From positions 19,505-83,504 of IMG/VR virus record IMGVR_UViG_3300029746_000007: a stretch of DNA of 64,000 nucleotides, one strand, 5' to 3'. Within the stretch, counting starts at the first letter, position 1. Each line of letters opens with the position of its first letter. Position numbers and translations under genes: made by a program. Below the pieces are notes generated by a model. That model did not search any database, had not been told where the DNA came from, and saw nothing but the letters and a program-made list of their open reading frames with translations. This DNA comes from a virus. Taxonomy: Duplodnaviria > Heunggongvirae > Uroviricota > Caudoviricetes. Positions 4,342-60,265 of the stretch are shown piece by piece.

Positions 4342-4590
4342 TTGATGGAAATGAAAAATATAGATTATGATAAGTTAGCTATGGCAATTATCAATGAGTA
4401 TGAATCAGATCGTGCAGAATCTGGTAGGAAAGAAATTAGAAAAGGAATGAAATATGTGTTAGATAAATATAAATCTGAGCACGATAAAGAGATTATTGAT
4501 GAAATGCTTATGACCTTTACTGGATGGAATTTAGAAACACTTATTCAAAAGTCAGAAAAGATAAGTGATGATGAAGTAGAAGAGGAATAA
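4342..4590 (+). CDS. hypothetical protein
   Basis: plus-strand ORF. Confidence 0.4.
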   Translation: MMEMKNIDYDKLAMAIINEYESDRAESGRKEIRKGMKYVLDKYKSEHDKEIIDEMLMTFTGWNLETLIQKSEKISDDEVEEE

Positions 4591-4593
4591 TTT

Positions 4594-4878
4594 ATGACAG
4601 AAGAGCAGCGGAAATTTAAAGAGAAAATAAAACATGATTTAGGTTATGATGCTGATTTTAACACATATTGCATCACAAGAGGACGTGGATGGTCTAAGTC
4701 AGGTGGATCGTGCGGGGCTTGTATTGATGCAACTTTTACAGGTGATAACGGAATTACTGGAACTGTAACGTTACTACTTTGTCATCCATTAAGAGTATAT
4801 AACAGAAATAAATATAAATTGATAGAAAGAGATAATGAACGTACACATGATACTTTTATTGAGATTGAAGAGAAATAG
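4594..4878 (+). CDS. hypothetical protein
   Basis: plus-strand ORF starting right after the upstream stop. Confidence 0.4.
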   Translation: MTEEQRKFKEKIKHDLGYDADFNTYCITRGRGWSKSGGSCGACIDATFTGDNGITGTVTLLLCHPLRVYNRNKYKLIERDNERTHDTFIEIEEK

Positions 4879-4897
4879 GAAATGGAGATGATAATTA

Positions 4898-5167
4898 ATG
4901 AATGCAACAATACAAAATGGTCAAGTAACGTATGTCGGTTTTAATCCGAATGATAACAACAAATGGCTTATTGAGACAAGAGGCAGTTATACATACGTGA
5001 ACTATCAGAAAGATGAATTCACACAAGTGATCTTTGGATATGTAATAAAACAGTCCAATGGAAAATATAAAGCATTTCATGGATTAGATGAAAAGGATGC
5101 AAAGTATTTTGATACTGTTGATGATGGAATTAAATATGTTAAATCATTTAAAACAGAAATGGAGTAA
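4898..5167 (+). CDS. hypothetical protein
   Basis: plus-strand ORF after GGAAATGGAGATG. Confidence 0.4.
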   Translation: MNATIQNGQVTYVGFNPNDNNKWLIETRGSYTYVNYQKDEFTQVIFGYVIKQSNGKYKAFHGLDEKDAKYFDTVDDGIKYVKSFKTEME

Positions 5168-5391
5168 TGATAATGGAAATTAACAATGTTGTAAATAATG
5201 GAGTACAGATACCAAACGAATGTACTTGTATATGGTGTGGCTCAAAGATGAAACGTGGTGGTGCTAATCGTATTGGTGCAGGAGTCAATAGTTTTTCTTT
5301 ATGGTGTGATAATTGCGGAGCAGTAGTTGTACACGCTTGTGATTTTGGAAAGAAGATTACTGGATATGAAGTGAAATGGGATGTGGAATAG
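5167..5391 (+). CDS. zinc-ribbon protein (CxxC ... CxxC)
   Basis: motifs CTCIWCG ... CDNCG. Confidence 0.4.
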   Translation: MIMEINNVVNNGVQIPNECTCIWCGSKMKRGGANRIGAGVNSFSLWCDNCGAVVVHACDFGKKITGYEVKWDVE

Positions 5392-5430
5392 ACTTGAAAC
5401 AAGATTTTTAATAGGTAAGGAGAAGAGAAT

Positions 5431-5757
5431 ATGACAGTAGAAAGACTGATTAAACAATTGGAAAATTACAATCCAAAGGCAGAAGTTAGGTTGAATGATT
5501 GTAGAGGAACAACCGCTTTATTTGCTGTGGCTTTAGCTGATAACGATGACCTTGTGTGGATTGAAGGCAAAGATGATATTGATCTCGGAGAGGAAATTTC
5601 TGCAAGGTTTGAAAGAGCAAGCGAAATTCAGACGGATGAACTTGATTTCTTTATGGATTTACTTGATATGGGGATCACATTGAAAGATATTGAGTTATAT
5701 TGTCCAGACAAATATGAATACAGTAAGACATTTATGGAAGATCATGGGCTGATTTAA
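5431..5757 (+). CDS. hypothetical protein
   Basis: AAGGAGAAG RBS. Confidence 0.45.
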   Translation: MTVERLIKQLENYNPKAEVRLNDCRGTTALFAVALADNDDLVWIEGKDDIDLGEEISARFERASEIQTDELDFFMDLLDMGITLKDIELYCPDKYEYSKTFMEDHGLI

Positions 5758-5788
5758 TCAGCCTTTGAAACGATGATTTCAGAAACGC

Positions 5789-6055
5789 ATGTATAGAAAG
5801 AAGAGGTGCATAATGGAAACTTTATTCTTTAATAACGAAACGATCATTGTTACGGAAAATATAAATGGAGATATGTATTTATTAAAGTCAAAATATATTC
5901 AAGACATTTTGGATGATTCGGACGGAAATTGTGATTTTGTTCCACCAAACGATGCAAGAGTGTATTTTGCAAGCTGGAACGGAAAACCGATCAGTCCATA
6001 TGAATATACCGATTTTGAATCACTAATTAAATGGTTTAGAGAATTACAGAGATGA
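5789..6055 (+). CDS. hypothetical protein
   Basis: plus-strand ORF. Confidence 0.4.
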   Translation: MYRKKRCIMETLFFNNETIIVTENINGDMYLLKSKYIQDILDDSDGNCDFVPPNDARVYFASWNGKPISPYEYTDFESLIKWFRELQR

Positions 6056-18009: not shown

Positions 18010-18163
18010 GTTACTTAAAAATAAATAGACGGAGAATAAATAATAGGAAAGGAAGTGATAGATATGTGTGAAAAGATTGATGAAAAGAATCCGGATGTTC
18101 AGGAGAAAGAAGTCAGGCGAATGGAAGTTTGGGAATATTTAGAATGGAAGGTTGGTGAGAAGA

Positions 18164-19213
18164 ATGAAAAAGACAGATAAATTAAAAAAACAATTACAGG
18201 ATAAAATCATCACAATGGATGAATTAGATATTACAATGGAAGACATCGGATATAATCTGGTAGAAATTGATGACAATGAAAACAACGTGATTAAATATAC
18301 AAATGGAAAGTCATTTATCAATGTATATGTCATGCATGATGGACAAGAATATATGGTAACGGATATTACGATGTCCAATAAGAAACGTGGTAGCACAACT
18401 GTAAGAGCATTTCATACAATTGAAGAAATAAAAGGAATGATGGATTGGTTCAGAGACAATGAGCAATATGATAATTTCTTGACTTTTATGTTAGGCTTAT
18501 TCCTTGCAAGACGTGTTGGTGATACGTTGTCATTAAAGTGGAGAGACTTCTACTTTGAAAATGGTAGAAGAAAAGAAAGTCTTAATACATTAATTGAAGA
18601 TAAAACCGACAAAATAGTTGATATGCATATTTCTGATGTTACGTGGAAATATATTGATTGGTATTGTGAAAAAACAAATATTGATCCAAAAGAACATCTC
18701 AATGAGGATATCTTTAAATCTTTGCATAAAGATTGGTTGCCGAATAATTATACGAAAAAACAATATGATGAAGCTGTAGAAAAAATGGAATCTTCATATC
18801 GTAATCAATTTAAAAAGGCAGCAGAAGCGTGTGGAATCAATGGTGTAAGTACACATAGCACACGTAAGTCATTTGGATATATAGCGCATGAAATTAACAG
18901 ATTTGATCCAGATTGCTATCCGGTATTACAGAGTGTGTATGGTCATGGTTCTGTAGAAACAACAAAAAGATACATTGATTGCATAAGAGAGAAAGCAAAT
19001 AAGATGTTTGAAGATGTAGCAAAATACATTGAAGATGTAGATAATGGGATAACACCTGAAATAAAGAATTTACTCATTGTAGCACTTTCGACAAATGATT
19101 TACGAGATGTATTATATACTGCTCTTAAACTTGGAAGAGAAACGAATGTAGAAGATGATGTTGAAAGTATGAATATGCTATTATCTATGGTAGAAGAAAA
19201 GCGTGTATCATGA
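18164..19213 (+). CDS. int: tyrosine recombinase / phage integrase
   Basis: motifs ARRVGDTLSLKWRDF (Arg I), HSTRKSF (HxxR box) and HGSVETTKRYI (catalytic Tyr) are typical of the tyrosine-recombinase family; the ATG at 18164 follows GGTGAGAAG. Confidence 0.85.
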   Translation: MKKTDKLKKQLQDKIITMDELDITMEDIGYNLVEIDDNENNVIKYTNGKSFINVYVMHDGQEYMVTDITMSNKKRGSTTVRAFHTIEEIKGMMDWFRDNEQYDNFLTFMLGLFLARRVGDTLSLKWRDFYFENGRRKESLNTLIEDKTDKIVDMHISDVTWKYIDWYCEKTNIDPKEHLNEDIFKSLHKDWLPNNYTKKQYDEAVEKMESSYRNQFKKAAEACGINGVSTHSTRKSFGYIAHEINRFDPDCYPVLQSVYGHGSVETTKRYIDCIREKANKMFEDVAKYIEDVDNGITPEIKNLLIVALSTNDLRDVLYTALKLGRETNVEDDVESMNMLLSMVEEKRVS

Positions 19214-24221: not shown

Positions 24222-24757
24222 TGAAAACAATGAAATTATCCGATATTAAAATTACGGAGGCTTTTGAAAGTACTCATCCAAGTCCAGATAAAATTAGGAA
24301 GAAAAAAGAGCAGTGGCTAAAGACTGGTAGACAGGGGAAATACATAGTTGTAAATAAAGATGGATATCTTGTAGATGGATATATTACATATCTTATTATG
24401 AAAGAGTTAGGCGTTGAAAAAGCGAAAATTATTAAAAAGAAATCATGGATGAATCCGATTGAAAGTTTGGAAATTAAAGAACCTGCCTATAGAACAGAGA
24501 ATACTACATATGTGTGGGGTGTTCATCCAAATTCTCCGGATAATAAACTGTATGTTTGGAGAGTTCCGAATGGTGGAAACTGGAATGAATTCAAAAAGAA
24601 TATAACCGTAGGAGATATGATTTTCTGTTACGCAAAAGGGAAGGTGTCTCCGGTGATCATTAAAGCGATTCAGACTACAGATGTTTGCCCGACACCATTG
24701 GATGTGAAGAAGGTTTGTAGTAAGAATATTGTGAAAGAAAGTGAGAACAATGCCTGA
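24221..24757 (+). CDS. ParB N-terminal-like domain protein with C-terminal PUA/EVE-like region
   Basis: GKYIVVNKDGYLVDGYITYLIMKELGVEKAKII fits the ParB N-domain pattern; C-terminal YVWGVHPNSPDNKLYVWRVPNGGNW block suggests an EVE/PUA-type fold; ATGA overlap with the upstream gene. Confidence 0.45.
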   Translation: MKTMKLSDIKITEAFESTHPSPDKIRKKKEQWLKTGRQGKYIVVNKDGYLVDGYITYLIMKELGVEKAKIIKKKSWMNPIESLEIKEPAYRTENTTYVWGVHPNSPDNKLYVWRVPNGGNWNEFKKNITVGDMIFCYAKGKVSPVIIKAIQTTDVCPTPLDVKKVCSKNIVKESENNA

Positions 24758-24922
24758 TATTACGATGTGCATGAGTAAAGATTGTCCCAAAAAGAATGAA
24801 TGTTATCGTTCTATGGCAAAACCAGATAAATATTATCAAAGCTATGCTGATTATGGAAAGATTTGCTTAGAAAATGATTATAAATACTTTTGGGAAACAA
24901 TTGTTCAAAAGAAAGAATAAAT
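24755..24922 (+). CDS. small Cys-rich protein (CxxC-like)
   Basis: MCMSKDCPKKNECYRS; its stop codon lies inside a 22-bp direct repeat. Confidence 0.3.
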
Positions 24923-24929
24923 CAATAGA
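24908..24929. repeat. 22-bp direct repeat copy 1 (AAAGAAAGAATAAATCAATAGA)
   Basis: exact second copy at 25165..25186. Confidence 0.8.
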
Positions 24930-25164
24930 TAATATTTCTGGTAGCCACTAAGCAGGGTAATTATCGTGTCGGATAATTACGCCAGTGTTCACAAACAAGT
25001 TCCCATCTGTTAAGACGGAACCGCTTGTATGCACGTACGTGCACCTTTGGTCTACTCATACAATCAACTCCTTTCATGTGTCGTTAAGGTTTAAATACCA
25101 TACGATCACTTGGGACAAGTTGAAATTGCACTTAGTGACTACCATTAATATACATTATACGTCT

Positions 25165-25186
25165 AAAGAAAGAATAAATCAATAGA
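25165..25186. repeat. 22-bp direct repeat copy 2
   Basis: exact copy of 24908..24929; the pair flanks a 235-bp GC-richer segment. Confidence 0.8.
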
Positions 25187-25422
25187 CATGAATTTTAGGT
25201 TTCAAAGGCAGAAAAGTTTGGCGACCGACCTGCCTAAGAAACCCAGGATAACAAAGGATAAACCTTGTTAGTTCTTATTATAAATAGTTCTAATGGCTTG
25301 GTCAAGTCAGTTTTATCCTTAAGAAATTAAAAATATCGCAGGTGGTTTTGCTCCTGAAGGTGAGTATCAATACAAACCAGAATCTATGTAAATAATATGT
25401 GTAAAGATTTGAGGTTTTGGAT

Positions 25423-25515
25423 ACCTATAGAATTACATTGGTACAAAACCGAAATCCATCTGCAAGTCCTGTCCAAACAGATTCAGACACCTATAGAATT
25501 ACATTGGTACAAAAC
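25423..25515. CRISPR. CRISPR-like minimal unit: two identical 27-bp repeats (ACCTATAGAATTACATTGGTACAAAAC) around a 39-bp GC-richer unique spacer
   Basis: repeat 1 at 25423..25449, spacer 25450..25488, repeat 2 at 25489..25515; the flanks differ; iterons are an alternative reading. Confidence 0.35.
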
Positions 25516-25595
25516 AGAGATATCTAATTTAACATAGTAACAAAAAACATAATTAAAATTAATATACAAATTTATATAAGTAATGAGGTGATAAA

Positions 25596-35453: not shown

Positions 35454-36509
35454 TTGATGACAGATTATTTCTCGCAAAAACCTAATAGTATTGTTGTTTG
35501 TTCGAATGGTGGAGCGCAAAGAGGACATACTGTAGTTACCTCAACTGGAATCAGACATGTCTTTCATCATTTTGGCTCAGGGACTTTCAATCAAGCGGAT
35601 ACATATCTCTCAGAAGACTTTATTTGCAATCCGATTATTTTTAAGCAAGAATACAATGAATTAAAACAACTAGGCTATTGTCCGAACATTTATATAAATC
35701 AACATTGTATGGTAACAACTCCATATGATATGATGGCTAATCAAATTATAGAAGAGAAACGTGGAAAGAATAAGCATGGAAGTTGTGGTCTTGGAATTTA
35801 TGAGACAATTAAAAGATATAAAGCCGGAGTAACTACTTTGTATGCCTCCGATTATATCCGAGATTATTACTTAAAGATTTTCGACAGAGAAGGAATTGTC
35901 TTAACTAAGAAATGGGAAGATTTGTTCAATGATTCAGGAATTTACGATCATTGTTTGGAAGATTGGGATTTTATGAACGAAGTAGCAACAACGATTTCTG
36001 ATGAATGTTTTCTCAATGAGTACGAGAATATAGTATTTGAAGCTGCACAAGGTCTTTTACTTGATCAAAATAATCTGAAATATTATCCACATCTTACACC
36101 CTCTAACACAGGAATAAAAAATCCAAAGAAAATAATTGAAAATGTGAAATGGGACGATGATATTAACATTGAGACATGTTATGTGTCAAGGACATATTTA
36201 ACAAGGCATGGAGCAGGGCAATTCCCATCTGAATGTGACAAGTCGCTAATCAATCAAAGAATGTATGATAAGACTAATGTTCCAAATCCGCATCAAGATA
36301 CTTTGAGATATGGTTTGCTCGATTTAGATCAATTATACGATAGATGTATAAAAGATGTTGAAGGTTTTGGACATAAAAAATCTATTGTGTTTACACATAT
36401 AAATGAATACTCCATGAGTAAAAAAAGAATTAAGAGTCTATTTGACGATTGGGACATCTATTTTTCAGACGGCGAGACACATAATGATATATATAGAATA
36501 AATAATTAA
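35454..36509 (+). CDS. adenylosuccinate synthetase-family protein (PurA homolog; candidate PurZ-type enzyme); N-terminus unresolved
   Basis: SNGGAQRGHT, FEAAQGLLLD and TRHGAGQFPSE align with PurA motifs GGHNAGHT, FEGAQGTLLD and TRVGAGPFPTE (PurA sequence recalled from memory); the P-loop GDEGKG is encoded in frame at 35436..35453, before the first start codon and after an in-frame TAG at 35418. Confidence 0.7.
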   Translation: MMTDYFSQKPNSIVVCSNGGAQRGHTVVTSTGIRHVFHHFGSGTFNQADTYLSEDFICNPIIFKQEYNELKQLGYCPNIYINQHCMVTTPYDMMANQIIEEKRGKNKHGSCGLGIYETIKRYKAGVTTLYASDYIRDYYLKIFDREGIVLTKKWEDLFNDSGIYDHCLEDWDFMNEVATTISDECFLNEYENIVFEAAQGLLLDQNNLKYYPHLTPSNTGIKNPKKIIENVKWDDDINIETCYVSRTYLTRHGAGQFPSECDKSLINQRMYDKTNVPNPHQDTLRYGLLDLDQLYDRCIKDVEGFGHKKSIVFTHINEYSMSKKRIKSLFDDWDIYFSDGETHNDIYRINN

Positions 36510-45946: not shown

Positions 45947-46690
45947 TTCAATAGAGAATATATAAATAGGTAATTATTCATTGTTTACTGGAAACTTTAG
46001 ACTATGACTCATCTGAGTTTTTATCAGTTACTCCGATGTAAAAAGATAAACAAACTGATACATAAAGAATATAATTTTTACAAAACAGATGGCTTACTAT
46101 GCTAAAGTAAATACCAAATATTAAGATATATTAAGATAACAAAAGCCTCCGGCATGAGAAGTAAACTGCTATAAAGCTAAAAGTTATAAATCTCAAAGAG
46201 TAAAGTTAAAGATTCAAAGTTTTTCATTAGTACAAAGTTCAAACAGTAAAGATAAAAGATATAAAGATTTATAAAATCCCAGATAAAAGGTTGCGAGTAT
46301 AGTTGTAATTGACTTTGGGTTGTCCTCTGGGCTGGTAAATGGTGAATATATTATAAATAATGTTTCCTCCTGTATGATGATACACGGGATACAAATTTTT
46401 CCATACTAAATATATGAGAGTGGAGTATAAATCTCTCACATCAAAATCCAATTGGTTAAGCAGTGGGTTGCGATTGGCATCAATATAGAGAATATATAGA
46501 TGAAGAAACTACTGTAAATTACAATGGGCTGTGGTGAATAAGTAAACACATATGGCTTTGACCCATATATTAGTGGGGGCAGTACCCACCAGCCTAGTTT
46601 GTCTGAATTATCAATCAGACACTCCTTTCTAAAATTGATGCTTTATCACAAATAGGTTGGCAACTTACCTCATAAAAGTTGTAAGTTTCT

Positions 46691-46764
46691 GGAGCGTTAG
46701 CATAGTTGGTTAATGCATGTGCCTCATAAGCATAAGATCACCCGTTCAAGTCGGGTACGCTCCA
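46691..46764 (+). tRNA. tRNA-Met/fMet-like (anticodon CAT)
   Basis: manual fold: acceptor GGAGCGT/ACGCTCC, D-arm GCAT-AGTTGGTTAA-TGC, anticodon stem TGTGC/GCATA with loop CTCATAA, T-arm ACCCG-TTCAAGT-CGGGT. Confidence 0.6.
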
Positions 46765-46880
46765 TGAGAGATACTTGACCTTACACTTTTCCAAAGCACT
46801 CTGGAACAAAGGTTAGCGAAAAGTGCGCTTAAGACATTGCGTATTAGTCATGTGCGAAAACATGGGTGCGCTTATAATAC

Positions 46881-47027: not shown

Positions 47028-47198
47028 TTTGTGGATTGATACAATGCTAGTTGTTGAGATTCACATATCCGAACGAAAGTATGCCATGAGAAAGCATATT
47101 TGAATTGTATAAGTGTCGTTAAACAGCAAACTTTCTCCGACATTTATATTTCATAGGTTGTAGCGCGCATAATCTGTGACGGAACTATTACATTAGTG

Positions 47199-47276
47199 TG
47201 GCAATTAGCTCAGTAGGGAGAGCAAAGAACAAGGTATACTTTTCTACGGTCGGTGGTTCGAGTCCATCATTGTCAC
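47199..47276 (+). tRNA. tRNA (anticodon unresolved; anticodon stem has a mismatch and the variable region is extended)
   Basis: acceptor TGGCAAT/ATTGTCA, D-arm GCTC-AGTAGGGA-GAGC, T-arm GGTGG-TTCGAGT-CCATC. Confidence 0.5.
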
Positions 47277-47340
47277 ATCGGTTAGATAATAACCGAAATC
47301 ATAGTTTTTCATACTTTTCATTGACGTTTGTTTACGGGTT

Positions 47341-47408
47341 TGGCTGTTGGTGTAAATGGATAGCACGTTATTGCCGTAAAGATAAAGGTTCGAATCCTTT
47401 ACAGTCAA
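47341..47408 (+). other. tRNA-like degenerate element (too short for a canonical tRNA)
   Basis: T-arm AAAGG-TTCGAAT-CCTTT and acceptor TGGCTGT/ACAGTCA pair, but only 17 nt lie between the D- and T-arms. Confidence 0.3.
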
Positions 47409-55388: not shown

Positions 55389-56976
55389 TATCAAGAACGA
55401 TTGCAGAGGAATGTATGAAGAAGAGATTTTTAATACAATTCTCGAAGAACGTGGAATTAATAATATAGATAAATTTTTAGAACCAACAGAAGATGCATTA
55501 TTGCCACTTAAAGATTTGGTCAATATTGATAAAGCAGCAGATAGAGTTATAGAAGCTATTAAAAATGAAGAAAGCGTTGCGATATTGTGGGATACTGATA
55601 CAGATGGTACGACATCCGGTGCAATAATGACGAGATATTTACAGCATTTTATAAGTTATCCAGTGGTTCCATTTATTGATGAAGGCAAAATGCATGGATT
55701 AAAGGGTCAGAATTTGGACAAGTTTAAAAGTTTTGACCTATTAATTATCGTAGATAGTTTGGATAAGAATGAAAAACAATATAAAAAATTATTTGAAATG
55801 GGTGTAGATATTATTATTCTTGATCATCATGCTATTAAACCCAATATCCCATATGACGAATATACAATATTTGTATCTTCTCAGAGATTTTATGATAATC
55901 CACAATTATCTGGCGCAGGGGTAGTATGGAAGTTTTGTAAATATTTAGATGAGTGTTTTGAAACTGATTATGCTGATGAATTAATTGATTTAGCAGCTTG
56001 TGGAATTGTTGCAGATATGATGGATATGACAATCATGGAGAATAGATACATAGTATATCAAGGACTTCAGAAGATATATAATCCTGCCATTAAAAAAATT
56101 ATTGGAGGATTTCAGTTTAATAGTACAGCAATTTCATTTAGTATTGCTCCAATTATAAATGCTGCAAATAGAATGGGTAAAAATGAGATTGTTGTAAAAG
56201 CTTTTCTTGCTGATGAGAATAAAACGGTCTTGAAATATATTAAGGAACTGAAAAAATGTAAAGAAGATCAGAATGAAGAAGTTAATAGACTTATGCCGGA
56301 TGTAATAAGCCAGTGTGAGAGTCAAAAAAATAAAAAGATGCTTACTGCTATTATTGATACTCCGTATGGCGTTGCAGGATTAATTGGTAATAAGTTATTA
56401 GAAAAATATCAAAGACCGGTATTAGTTTTGAAAGATGTTGGTAAAAAATATTCTGGTTCTATGAGAGCTATTGGAGTCGATGATTTTAGAGAAATATGCA
56501 ACGATAGTAAATTAGCAGAAGCTGACGGACACGAATTGGCAGCCGGTATTCAAATTAAAAAGGACAATTTCAATAAATTCTTGTCTTATATCGAGACAAA
56601 TCTTCCTGAATTAAAATCAGATACAACAATTAATATAGATGTTCAAATAGATATTTCTGATGTAACACGTAAATTGGTTGATTATATTAAAAAGATTGAT
56701 TTCGTGTCTGGCGAAAACTTTAAACCTGTAAGGTTTTACATCAATGATATCAGAGAATATGAAATTGGGCAGATGAGCAACTATAAGCATTTAGTAGTTA
56801 AACCTAATGATTATCTCCAGATTATTAAATGGAATTTCAATGGATCATTTGATGAAATGGATGATCATGCAATGATGAATGATGGGCTTGAGATTTGTTG
56901 CACATTAGATTCTGGTTTTCTTGGAAGAAAATTTGTTTTAAAAGCAGTATGTGATGAGATTGAGGAGGTTGATTAA
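55369..56976 (+). CDS. recJ: DHH-family phosphoesterase, RecJ-like ssDNA exonuclease
   Basis: motifs ILWDTDTDGTTSG (DxD), LLIIVDSLD and IIILDHHA (DHH). Confidence 0.75.
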   Translation: MMMTNYNIKNDCRGMYEEEIFNTILEERGINNIDKFLEPTEDALLPLKDLVNIDKAADRVIEAIKNEESVAILWDTDTDGTTSGAIMTRYLQHFISYPVVPFIDEGKMHGLKGQNLDKFKSFDLLIIVDSLDKNEKQYKKLFEMGVDIIILDHHAIKPNIPYDEYTIFVSSQRFYDNPQLSGAGVVWKFCKYLDECFETDYADELIDLAACGIVADMMDMTIMENRYIVYQGLQKIYNPAIKKIIGGFQFNSTAISFSIAPIINAANRMGKNEIVVKAFLADENKTVLKYIKELKKCKEDQNEEVNRLMPDVISQCESQKNKKMLTAIIDTPYGVAGLIGNKLLEKYQRPVLVLKDVGKKYSGSMRAIGVDDFREICNDSKLAEADGHELAAGIQIKKDNFNKFLSYIETNLPELKSDTTINIDVQIDISDVTRKLVDYIKKIDFVSGENFKPVRFYINDIREYEIGQMSNYKHLVVKPNDYLQIIKWNFNGSFDEMDDHAMMNDGLEICCTLDSGFLGRKFVLKAVCDEIEEVD

Positions 56977-59900
56977 TATTTCAGATATCGAATTAATCAA
57001 AGAAATAATTCCAACATTGACTTTTAATTTCCCTTATTCAGCAGAAGATTATGAAAAGAAGTTATATCTTGAAAATTATCATTGTCATAAAGATTTCAGC
57101 AATACTTCTACTCCAGATTGTGCGGAATTAATTAACACATATGCTGATAGAATACATGAATTTGGAGCAAAGTGTTTATATTCTGGTGAACATGGATCTC
57201 AAGGAAATCAATTCCAAGTATATAAGGTAGCAGAAAGTGAACATCTTAAATATGTACATTCTTCTGAAGTATATTGGGTAAAAGATAGAAAAGAAAAAGA
57301 TCGAACAAATTGCCATATGATTATAGCAGCAAAAAATGCTGAAGGTCGTGGTGATATTAATTTTGCTTTATCTATGGCAAATATAGATGGATATTATTAT
57401 AAACCACGTATTGATTTAGAATTATTATTCAACATTCCGAAAGATAACATAATTGTAACATCAGCATGTGTGGCTGGTTGGAATTATGAAGATGCAGAAG
57501 ATATATGGTTGAAAATACATGAATATTTTGGGGATAATTTTTTCTTAGAAGTGCAGTATCATAATACAGATAAACAAAAGGAACTCAATAAAAAAATTTT
57601 AAGAATTGCAAAAGAAAATAATATTCAAATTATATGTGGTCTTGATAGCCATTATATTAAAGAAGAAAACTCAATTAAGAGAGATCAGATTTTAAAATAC
57701 AAAAATATTAATTATCCAGATGAAGCAGGATGGTATCTAGATTATCCAGATACTAAAACAGTTATTAAGAGATTTGAAGAACAAGGGATTTTAAATAAAG
57801 AGGAAATATATAGAGCAATTATGAATACAAATGTTTTCGTAACGCAATGTGATGAAATTACTCTTGATAGGAAATTTAAAATTCCAAGTGTTCATAAGGA
57901 TAAAACGTATAAAGAAAAATGCAATATTTATAAAAATATTCTTAACAAGGCTTATTCAAAAGAAAAGGAAAAATCAAAAGAGAAGGCTGACGGTATTCGA
58001 TATGAAGCTAAACAAGTAATGGAAGCAGGTGTTGTTGATTATTTCTTGACCAGTAAAGCAATTGTAGATGATGCAGTAGAAAATGAAGGAGGCATTTTAA
58101 CAACTACTTCAAGAGGAAGTGCTGCCTCATATATCACAAATAAATTATTAGGACTTACAACAGTAGATAGATTTAATGCTGATATTCCAATCTACCCAGA
58201 ACGTTTTCTGACAAAAGAACGTGTGTTAGCTGGACAAATGCCAGATATTGATCTAAATGTAGCCACACAAGAACCATTTGTTAAAGCAGCAAGAAAATTA
58301 CTTGGAGAGCATGGTTGTTATCCATTAATGGCAGTAGAAAAACTTAAAGAAAAAGCAGCTTGGCAATTATATGCAGGAGCAAATGATGTAAAGCCAGAAG
58401 ATGCAAACCAAATTTCTAAATATCTTGATGAGTATAATAAAGCTTTAAAATATGCAGACGAAGATGAAAAAGATGATATTCATGTAGAAGACTATATTCC
58501 AGAAAAATATACAGAATTATTTAAACAGAGTAATGAATATCAAGGAATCACAATTAATTTAAAAGTTCATGCATGTGGTCATTTTATTTTTGATGGAGAT
58601 ATTCGTAGAGAAGTAGGGTTAATAAGTGCAGTTTCTGAATCGACAGGCAAAAGAACAGTATGTGCTGCTATTGAAGGTGGTTTCCTTGATGAATTTGGAT
58701 ATGTGAAAGAAGATTTTCTTATTGTAGATAGCGTTTATCTTACATATAAATTCTTTCATAGTATTGGAATGGAAGTCCCTACTTTTGATGAACTAAGACA
58801 CATGATTGCTGGGGACAAAAAAACATGGGATATTTACGCAAATGGCATTACATGTTGTGTTAATCAATGCGAGAAAGAAGCAACTACTAATCGAGTTAAA
58901 AAATATAAGCCACAGAATTTGGCAGAATTAAGTAGTTTTATTGCAGCTATTCGACCAGGATTTGCTTCATTACTTAGTACATTTTTGAATCGTGAACCAT
59001 ATACCACCGGAGAAAAAAAGATTGATGATTTACTATCGGATACAGCCCACTTCATGATATACCAAGAATCTATTATGAAAGTTTTATCTTTCTTGCAATT
59101 ACAAATGGGTGAAACATATGGTGTTATAAAGTCAATCTCAAAAAAGAAACTAAAAGGTGAGAAGAAAGAACATCTATTGGCTGAATTAAATCAATCATGG
59201 AATGATGAATTTGGAAATACTGATAATTTTAGAAATGTATGGAATGTAATTGAAGATTCTGCAAGATACGCTTTTAATTCACCACATGCTTACTCGATGG
59301 GTGGAGATTCCGCTTACCAAGCATGGTTTAAAGCGCATCATACTAAGACATTCTATGAAGTAGCAATTAATCATTATCAAGAAAAGAATAAAAAAGATAA
59401 AATAGATTCTTTGGTCAAAGAAGCAATCAGGTTTTGGGGATATAAATTAGGTGATTATGAATTTGGAGCAGATAACAGGAAAGTTACAATTAATGAAGAG
59501 AATAAATTAATATATCCTAATTTATCTAGTGTAAAAGGATTTGGAGAAGGAGTTGTCAATACTCTTTATGAATTAGGGAAAAATGAATATAAATCATTTA
59601 CAGAAGTTTTAAAAGCACTTACTTCAAATTCAATTAATAAGACAATTATAAACAAGTTAATTCGTCTTAATTACTTTAAAAAATATGGAGATGTAAATAC
59701 ATTACTTGAAACGACCAGATATTATGATTTATTGAATGGAACAAAACAGATATCTAAAGATAAAGCTGAAAAAAATAACATTCCATTTAATATCTTGAAT
59801 GAATATGGGAATGAAACAGCAAAGCAATTTAATAAATTGGATTCTGAAAAAATAATTCTCAAATTAATTTCTATGATTCCATATAGGAAATTATCTTTGA

Positions 59901-60265
59901 AAGAAATGTTAGATAATCAGCAACAAATTCTCGGAATTATAAATATCTTCGATTCGACAATAAATAAACGTTTTTATTATGTGTCCAATATAGAAGAAAA
60001 GAAAACAGTAGTTAATATTTCTTTATACGAAATCTATAGCGGTAAAACACGCCAGGTAAAAATGTGGACAAGTCAATTTTCAAAGCAAAGATTCGAACAA
60101 GGACAAATTCTATATATTATTTCCTTAGATAAAAAGAATAAAAAAGAACCAACTGGTGAAATCAATCCGAATACAGGAAAGAAAATATACAAAGAGGTTC
60201 CGGATAAATATGAATATTGGCTCAAGAAATTTATTGTAAAAGATGATTTGGAGGAAGAAGAGTGA
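56951..60265 (+). CDS. dnaE: DNA polymerase III alpha subunit (DnaE-type, PHP domain)
   Basis: 1104 aa; N-terminal PHP motif YHCHKDFSNTS; overall size and layout of a Pol III alpha; start codon unclear (no in-frame ATG near GAGGAGG at 56965). Confidence 0.75.
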   Translation: MMRLRRLINISDIELIKEIIPTLTFNFPYSAEDYEKKLYLENYHCHKDFSNTSTPDCAELINTYADRIHEFGAKCLYSGEHGSQGNQFQVYKVAESEHLKYVHSSEVYWVKDRKEKDRTNCHMIIAAKNAEGRGDINFALSMANIDGYYYKPRIDLELLFNIPKDNIIVTSACVAGWNYEDAEDIWLKIHEYFGDNFFLEVQYHNTDKQKELNKKILRIAKENNIQIICGLDSHYIKEENSIKRDQILKYKNINYPDEAGWYLDYPDTKTVIKRFEEQGILNKEEIYRAIMNTNVFVTQCDEITLDRKFKIPSVHKDKTYKEKCNIYKNILNKAYSKEKEKSKEKADGIRYEAKQVMEAGVVDYFLTSKAIVDDAVENEGGILTTTSRGSAASYITNKLLGLTTVDRFNADIPIYPERFLTKERVLAGQMPDIDLNVATQEPFVKAARKLLGEHGCYPLMAVEKLKEKAAWQLYAGANDVKPEDANQISKYLDEYNKALKYADEDEKDDIHVEDYIPEKYTELFKQSNEYQGITINLKVHACGHFIFDGDIRREVGLISAVSESTGKRTVCAAIEGGFLDEFGYVKEDFLIVDSVYLTYKFFHSIGMEVPTFDELRHMIAGDKKTWDIYANGITCCVNQCEKEATTNRVKKYKPQNLAELSSFIAAIRPGFASLLSTFLNREPYTTGEKKIDDLLSDTAHFMIYQESIMKVLSFLQLQMGETYGVIKSISKKKLKGEKKEHLLAELNQSWNDEFGNTDNFRNVWNVIEDSARYAFNSPHAYSMGGDSAYQAWFKAHHTKTFYEVAINHYQEKNKKDKIDSLVKEAIRFWGYKLGDYEFGADNRKVTINEENKLIYPNLSSVKGFGEGVVNTLYELGKNEYKSFTEVLKALTSNSINKTIINKLIRLNYFKKYGDVNTLLETTRYYDLLNGTKQISKDKAEKNNIPFNILNEYGNETAKQFNKLDSEKIILKLISMIPYRKLSLKEMLDNQQQILGIINIFDSTINKRFYYVSNIEEKKTVVNISLYEIYSGKTRQVKMWTSQFSKQRFEQGQILYIISLDKKNKKEPTGEINPNTGKKIYKEVPDKYEYWLKKFIVKDDLEEEE

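Follow-up and report, generated by a model that had tools for sequence, protein, structure and literature searches.

A 235-bp segment that lies between two perfect 22-bp direct repeats was analysed in a 64-kb stretch of phage DNA, which we call the window. The account that we consider probable as a whole is that of a repeat-flanked cassette, which carries an accessory small-protein gene on the strand opposite to its neighbours (Table 1). That the segment is a minus-strand protein-coding cassette can be said with high confidence. All credible genes of the window otherwise lie on the plus strand. The original prediction had taken the segment for an element with no role in coding, and this idea had to be given up, as the segment was found to have a predicted minus-strand promoter, a predicted Shine-Dalgarno (SD) sequence and a conserved 32-aa ORF. 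The promoter and the ORF, as well as a long-range inverted repeat of 13-15 bp (24940-24952 and 25131-25143) that closes the whole segment, had been overlooked.

Table 1. Positions of the features of the cassette and its borders in the 64-kb window. Promoter, SD, anti-SD, helix and transcript features are predictions.
Feature	Position	Strand	Remark
Cys-rich small ORF, 56 aa, MPDITMCMSKDCPKKNECYR...ETIVQKKE*	24750-24920	+	ATG at 24750, TAA at 24918-24920; last codons and stop in left repeat
Left 22-mer copy	24908-24929	.	3' end of the Cys-rich gene; in relatives its sequence depends on which allele of the gene is present
235-bp segment	24930-25164	-	Body of the probable small-gene cassette: -10 box, 5' UTR, ORF, 3' UTR
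Closing helix, 3' arm GCUUAGUGGCUACCA	24939-24954	-	Begins 7 nt past the stop codon
32-aa ORF MSRPKVHVRAYKRFRLNRWELVCEHWRNYPTR and stop	24961-25059	-	Modelled as a four-strand beta-meander
SD AAAGGAG	25068-25074	-	8 nt upstream of the ATG (25059); type B: AAAGGAGG
Anti-SD UCAACUU	25117-25123	-	Paired, in the predicted fold, to GAGUUGA in the ribosome-binding region
Closing helix, 5' arm AUGGUAGUCACUAAGUG	25129-25144	-	In two pairs (25-233, 32-226) both partners differ between types A and B
Sigma-70-like promoter, TTGATT (25182-25177), 17-nt spacer, TATAAT (25159-25154)	25154-25182	-	10/12; start predicted around 25146-25149, at the base of the closing helix
Right 22-mer copy	25165-25186	.	Displaced copy of the Cys-rich gene end; on the minus strand, -35 box and most of the spacer

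The perfect repeats around 235 bp were confirmed. The 22-mer AAAGAAAGAATAAATCAATAGA occurs in two exact copies in the window, and no third copy was found there even when three mismatches were allowed. Two matches were obtained in none of 100 dinucleotide shuffles. If one mismatch is allowed the repeat extends to 25 nt (24905-24929 and 25162-25186). No further copies of the insert or of its peptide were detected in the window. The segment, described earlier as markedly GC-richer than the phage, is indeed GC-richer (0.396 for 24930-25164 and 0.427 for 24940-25145, against a window mean of 0.319), but the excess is moderate. Among all 235-nt windows the standard deviation is 0.034 and the 95th and 99th percentiles are 0.375 and 0.404, with the segment at about the 98th percentile. 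The reported hairpin is real and consists of GTAATTATC/GATAATTAC (9 bp, then a bulged G and two further pairs); its letters had been slightly misquoted, the 3' arm being GATAATTACG and not ...ACC. Similarly, the left repeat does overlap the last codons (..QKKE*) and the stop of the Cys-rich ORF, which had been placed at 24755-24922 instead of the position in Table 1.

Relatives were drawn from IMG/VR, ENA and Logan gut metagenomes by means of the neighbouring 178-aa protein, the Cys-rich ORF and exact DNA patterns. Among GenBank phages, blastn with the locus and with the insert gave no match. The exact-pattern scan of IMG/VR returned three relatives only, and that of the metagenomes 19 loci with 3 true homologues among them; 11 of the 19 were rejected as a GC-rich conserved coding region sharing a 19-20-nt chance match, and 5 as isolated chance hits. 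In at least 12 loci the segment was present between two repeat copies, and at least 10 had a single-copy empty site. Segments of type A were 98.3-100% identical to that of the window (L001/2, L004, L022, L025, L028, L029, L032, L037, L039, L040, L042, L043), and type B segments showed 75% DNA identity at the same site (L003/L007, L013, L052). The empty sites L005, L030, L031, L033-L036 and L044/45 had one 22-mer and flanks 98.8-99.6% identical to those of the window, the sequence running ...GTTCAAAAGAAAGAATAAATCAATAGA directly into CATGAATTTTAGG... with the single 22-mer. As relatives with such nearly identical flanks (about 99%) hold one 22-mer and no insert, the proposal that the segment is a discrete inserted or deleted unit was upheld. 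Filled and empty forms were found in at least three backgrounds, one of which has a CRISPR-like locus downstream. Where DUF8224 is downstream, L031 is empty and L002 filled, with the right flank identical over about 120 nt; with the P0012 allele of the Cys-rich gene, L041 is empty and L039, L040 and L042 are filled. The cassette was at one and the same site in every relative, with one copy per genome.

The minus-strand gene has its predicted -35 box and 12 nt of the spacer within the right 22-mer, and the -10 box just inside the insert. The hexamers and their spacing are unchanged in type B, based on the alignment and the L003 sequence. The ORF, which appears in the ORF listing as 38 aa from an upstream ATG, was intact in 16 of the 16 filled loci. 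The type B ORF is of equal length (MENQRVHVRAYKRFRRNRWEYVCEHWRSYPSR). Types A and B differ in fifteen codons, with 7 synonymous and 8 non-synonymous differences, and over codons 6-33 there are 1, 4 and 9 nucleotide differences at codon positions 1, 2 and 3, respectively. A plus-strand ORF of 66 aa that ends in the right repeat was rejected, as it is not conserved in type B. No clean intrinsic terminator was found in the window 3' of the 3' arm of the closing helix.

The encoded peptide is basic, with a charge of about +7 (9 K/R versus 2 E) and no hydrophobic stretch. Its AlphaFold2 model had a mean pLDDT of 88. Foldseek with this model against the PDB gave nothing significant, the PDB sequence search returned noise only, and neither Pfam nor NCBIfam had a model for the peptide. 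A match to phrog_21154 was obtained over profile positions 19-46 of 47 (E 1.6e-4 for type B, 4.8e-3 for type A), which is marginal if taken alone. In one protein homology search the type A and type B peptides were concatenated, and its E-values are indicative only. A profile of the window peptide and three homologues found 241 clusters at E<=1e-3 among 1.84 billion representatives, mostly of 30-50 aa; the source names recovered for the clusters were all 'hypothetical protein'. In an alignment of 53 sequences 10 columns were invariant, and all 10 are present in the window peptide, which carries the motif V-x-V-x-x-Y-x-R-x-R...E-x-V...R..P and falls within the length of about 30-50 aa. For the family as a whole the consensus reads KxVHVRAYxRFRxGxWExVxxHxRSxPxR. 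With phrog_21154 and with H0092 of VT2-Sakai the peptide shares the motif VHVxAYxRxRxGxxExVCEHxRSxPxR and a size of 30-50 aa.

Using tblastn, members were found in 56 phage records including Ralstonia phages and Stx2 phages, the enterobacterial and Ralstonia phage homologues having 53-57% amino-acid identity. With a 4-sequence alignment as the query, close relatives were found in 15 bacterial genomes from Cyanobacteria, Proteobacteria, Firmicutes and Elusimicrobia. The members from Proteobacteria and Cyanobacteria (L068-L079) bear a C-terminal extension, PGQLxLF/FDF, and most are without a flanking inverted repeat. In VT2-Sakai the homologue H0092 (MSTYNLNDQFDREVHVNAYERIRHGNLEHVCEHYRSRPHR) follows cI and H0093 as the final gene of the series, and the annotated pRM terminator comes just after it. 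At the place of the Stx2-prophage homologue no feature is annotated in the RefSeq E. coli records that were listed.

Strong RNA structure was predicted for the segment, with fold z-scores against shuffled controls of -5.2 for the plus and -6.0 for the minus strand. The minus strand was more stable in both types (-81 vs -70 and -91.6 vs -86 kcal/mol). For the window sequence, the minus-strand structure has 10 G-U pairs, which would be A-C mismatches on the plus strand, compared with 4 such pairs in the plus-strand structure. In the minus-strand consensus structure 8 of the 79 pairs are changed on both sides between types A and B. The anti-SD helix joins positions 28-34 with 81-87 of the 219-nt fold, and the GAG of the SD is paired in this minimum-energy, in silico structure. 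Taken together, the predicted structure is best read as that of a small minus-strand mRNA. Conservation of the peptide could partly be entangled with that of a hairpin over the codons for KRFR..WExV.

The same layout was seen in three unrelated gut-phage groups (P0022, P0021 and P0020; loci L054-L067). In L055, L062 and L067 the homologue is opposite in strand to all called neighbours and has a putative sense-strand promoter matching at 9-11 of 12 positions. These sigma-70-like promoters are TTGCAA-16-TATAAT, TTGACG-17-TATAAT and TTGAAT-17-TATTAT with an extended TG. The ORF is flanked in these three loci by inverted repeats of 11-32 nt, 188-229 nt apart and unrelated in sequence, and between subfamilies the complementarity of the arms is conserved, not their sequence. 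The fold z-scores ranged from -5.1 to -6.0, or from -5.1 to -6.4 when the 219-nt fold of the window itself is included. According to the predicted folds the SD of L055 is fully sequestered (CCUUUCC/GGAAAGG), and in L062 and L067 the purine-rich region 5' of the ATG is at least partly paired. These homologous gut-phage genes also have the hairpin over the codons for KRFR..WExV. The Neobacillus, Clostridium, Elusimicrobia and one gammaproteobacterial locus likewise have inverted repeats of 9-12 bp on either side of the gene, which are absent in Pseudomonas-type members.

This architecture resembles that of type I toxin mRNAs. In hok/Sok and AapA1/IsoA1 a 5'-3' long-distance interaction is combined with sequestration of the SD. 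The cassette might accordingly be the toxin half of a type I toxin-antitoxin-like module, with an inert folded mRNA silenced by antisense RNA and a peptide that harms the cell or a competing phage when silencing lapses; the silencer would be either a dedicated antisense transcript or the convergent plus-strand transcription of the phage through the cassette. We consider this unlikely, but it has several points in its favour. T1TAdb (PMC8594479) defines type I toxin mRNAs by their small ORF, by SD/anti-SD pairing and by a 5'-3' long-distance interaction, and the cassette has a 30-40-codon ORF on a predicted mRNA of about 220 nt with paired ends and an SD partly paired to an anti-SD. The mRNA features are common to four subfamilies that are unrelated in sequence. 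In every case the gene runs convergent with, or antisense to, the genes next to it, as an independent transcription unit, and type I modules are frequent in prophages. However, typical type I toxins are hydrophobic with few exceptions, whereas this peptide is strongly basic, not membrane-like and without a hydrophobic segment, so that the resemblance lies in the mRNA architecture only. Neither an antitoxin RNA nor a convincing conserved antisense promoter was found; the plus-strand promoter-like sites are weak, and the site TTCAAA-18-GATAAT at 24904-24933 (9/12) is not conserved in L004 or L039. In addition, proteobacterial family members have neither the flanking inverted repeat nor the closing helix, and the Stx2-phage homologue is an ordinary gene that ends the cI operon, co-directional with cI, whereas the gut phages have a stand-alone antisense unit with a strongly structured mRNA. 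We describe the cassette as working like a translation-restrained small mRNA and do not file it as a type I toxin, because the peptide is basic and not hydrophobic and no conserved antisense promoter was identified.

Homologues of the Cys-rich ORF (P0001-P0019) were found, and the ORF matches phrog_20586, of unknown function, with an E-value of 2.4e-6. The right 22-mer together with the preceding TCT reads SKERINQ*, and the Cys-rich alleles P0009, P0013 and P0014 end in ..SK(E/K)RINQ, which indicates that the right copy is a displaced duplicate of the 3' end of that gene. The right copy is nearly constant, with 0-1 nt difference from that of the window across all type-A loci, while the two copies differ from each other at 0-5 positions depending on the Cys-rich allele, as listed in the allele table of the relatives. 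It follows that the cassette and the right copy travel together, and the promoter role of the right copy may explain its near constancy.

Perfect or near-perfect repeats of 22-25 bp suffice for spontaneous deletion and this would account for the recurrent empty sites. We lean towards the view that the repeats mediate loss of the cassette through recombination. The P0012 allele does not fit easily. Here the left copy departs from the right one at 4-5 of 22 positions, and to produce the empty site L041 the crossover would have to fall within no more than 'ATA', at the right-hand end of the imperfect repeats. The L041 site is not a simple homologous deletion, and the short crossover region leaves room for an enzyme-mediated, site-specific reaction. 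A second explanation was considered, in which the 22-mers are attL and attR of a miniature integrative element and a 257-bp unit is moved site-specifically by a recombinase acting in trans, such as the Phage_integrase-family tyrosine integrase encoded at 18152-19213, 6 kb from the cassette. The circle junction predicted by this model is ..CGTCT (...ACATTATACGTCT), followed by the 22-mer and TAATATTTCTGG... The empty sites are precise, the unit holds the 3' end of its target gene in the same way as elements that target gene ends, and both junctions in the P0012-allele background are at the same 'ATA' in spite of the imperfect repeats. Still, the two alleles lead to attP sequences that do not agree, an indel and a substitution setting them apart, and neither a circular junction nor a second insertion site was seen. 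No dedicated enzyme is needed for perfect 22-bp repeats to be deleted readily, and the integrase is more plausibly the phage's own. On balance the integrative element appears doubtful. To an equal degree it is improbable that the cassettes form a new class of translation-locked, type-I-toxin-like phage modules, with a basic beta-meander effector, convergent transcription as the antitoxin and a 257-bp circle formed via the repeats, as which the module would leave its site and pass between co-infecting phages.

The segment could instead be a gene for a non-coding structured RNA on either strand, with a fortuitous ORF. The very strong fold z-scores on both strands and the compensatory pair changes between types A and B would fit this, but no Rfam family matched, the substitutions are of the coding type with ORF length kept, and protein searches recovered homologues of the peptide in those 241 clusters; the non-coding reading is accordingly very unlikely. 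With Rfam, the whole window at gathering score gave two tRNAs elsewhere, and the region itself at E<=10 gave noise. The identities first suggested for the segment, namely a MITE-like element, a mini-intron, an IStron remnant or an ncRNA gene, did not hold, since there was no Rfam match, each genome had one copy and the segment is coding. A group I intron or IStron remnant was rejected also for the reason that the Cys-rich ORF stops within the left repeat and splicing is not needed. Retron ncRNA, guide RNA (omega/tracr-like) and bridge RNA had been considered since TnpB/Cas12-like genes are nearby in relatives; they were rejected as the cassette occurs without those genes in L002, L004, L028 and L029 and its conservation is explained by the minus-strand ORF. 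That the unit is a non-autonomous, MITE-like transposon, having terminal inverted repeats and a target-site duplication, is hardly credible: there are imperfect inverted repeats near both ends and a direct repeat at the borders, but the element is single-copy in each genome and always at the same site, a duplication of 22-26 bp far exceeds those of known bacterial transposases, the inverted arms lie 10 and 21 nt inside the borders and keep only their complementarity between subfamilies, and the repeat copies differ at 1-5 positions in L001/L002, L004, L039, L042 and L043, whose inserts are 98-99.6% identical to that of the window.

For the repeat-flanked accessory gene cassette, a comparison can be made with the PeSLs of T4-type phages, which are promoter-plus-terminator motifs abundant in hyperplastic genome regions (Arbiol et al. 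2010, PMC2839356). As in PeSL and moron regions, a small non-essential ORF with its own sigma-70-like promoter is located in a hypervariable region, the direct repeats include promoter sequence, and recombination between repeats would explain indel differences between close relatives. In contrast to PeSLs, the 22-mer occurs only twice in 64 kb, also with 3 mismatches allowed, and is derived from the end of a coding gene; only the right copy is part of the promoter, and the cassette is antisense to its neighbours. By analogy, the PeSL system is the closest described counterpart for shuffling of repeat-bounded small genes, apart from the multi-copy promoter-terminator motif.

The proposed mechanism is as follows. 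The cassette would form a minus-strand transcription unit antisense to every neighbouring phage gene, as an accessory ('moron'-type) gene whose expression would be independent of the rightward transcription of the phage. Its promoter would drive an mRNA of about 210-230 nt, the extreme 5' end of which is predicted to pair just past the stop codon in a closing helix of 13-15 bp. A hairpin in the 5' UTR would pair part of the SD region with the upstream anti-SD. This fold may restrain translation in the way that type I toxin mRNAs do, and convergent phage transcription could possibly silence the gene. As the Stx2-phage homologue is the terminal gene of the cI (lysogeny) operon, a role outside the lytic programme is indicated, possibly host modulation, exclusion or addiction. 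The right copy of the duplicated Cys-rich 3' end would have been co-opted as promoter sequence and would move with the cassette. Recombination or slippage between the 22-mers would delete the cassette and leave one copy, and the cassette may spread by exchange between co-infecting phages.

The region to the right of the cassette was also inspected. In all related loci about 20 nt directly to the right of the repeat (CATGAATTTTAGGTTTC, in 25187-25210) are conserved, whether the next module is a CRISPR-like locus, a 152-aa gene, DUF8224 or an HU-like gene, so that a hypervariable region seems to have a fixed junction here. After a conserved non-coding block (25187-25400) come two direct repeats of 30 nt (25420-25449 and 25486-25515) with a 36-nt spacer between them. 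In relatives (L005 6347-8360, L006 5090-7273, L030, L033-L036) the same block precedes arrays of 2-3 repeats and a 503-547-aa OrfB_IS605/Cas12f1-like_TNB protein, so that the whole has the appearance of a compact TnpB-derived or type V CRISPR-like locus. The window retains the block and the mini-array (region 25187-25521) and has lost the effector gene. The mini-array spacer had no match in any fetched locus. The 235-bp cassette was present in none of the six effector-bearing loci. In L005, a second TnpB-like ORF of 489 aa (4543-6012) is located at the 5' end of the Cys-rich ORF and replaces its normal start. The best promoter-like match of the region, TTGACC-17-TATAAT (11/12), is at 25277-25305 on the minus strand inside the conserved non-coding block, and for this reason the block might be transcribed leftward, towards the cassette.

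Elsewhere in the window, a 351-aa adenylosuccinate-synthetase-like protein is encoded at 35454-36509 (Pfam E 9e-30), and the same phage encodes Pol III alpha (56951-60265), a DnaB-like helicase and a RecJ-like DHH protein. We take this short phage PurA homologue to recall PurZ of phages with 2-aminoadenine genomes. A tRNA-Met at 46690-46765 was found by both ARAGORN and Rfam, and the two disagreed on another tRNA, with ARAGORN calling tRNA-Pro(AGG) at 47198-47277 and Rfam a tRNA at 47341-47408.

The cassette is ordinary in kind, being a moron-type insertion/deletion of a widespread, uncharacterised phage peptide family, which has no assigned function and extends through its many clusters to phages of several bacterial phyla. 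Its gene of 32 codons had been missed by the gene callers in the window, as was the Stx2-prophage homologue in the RefSeq E. coli records listed, and repeat-bounded "non-coding" phage inserts should consequently be checked on both strands. In gut phages the conserved and, by prediction, strongly folded mRNA looks built to restrain translation, and the conservation of this architecture suggests regulated, possibly toxin-like expression. The pairs of filled and empty sites provide a natural deletion series, and the family member in the lysogeny operon of Shiga-toxin phages provides a handle on both the function of the small protein and its control at the RNA level.
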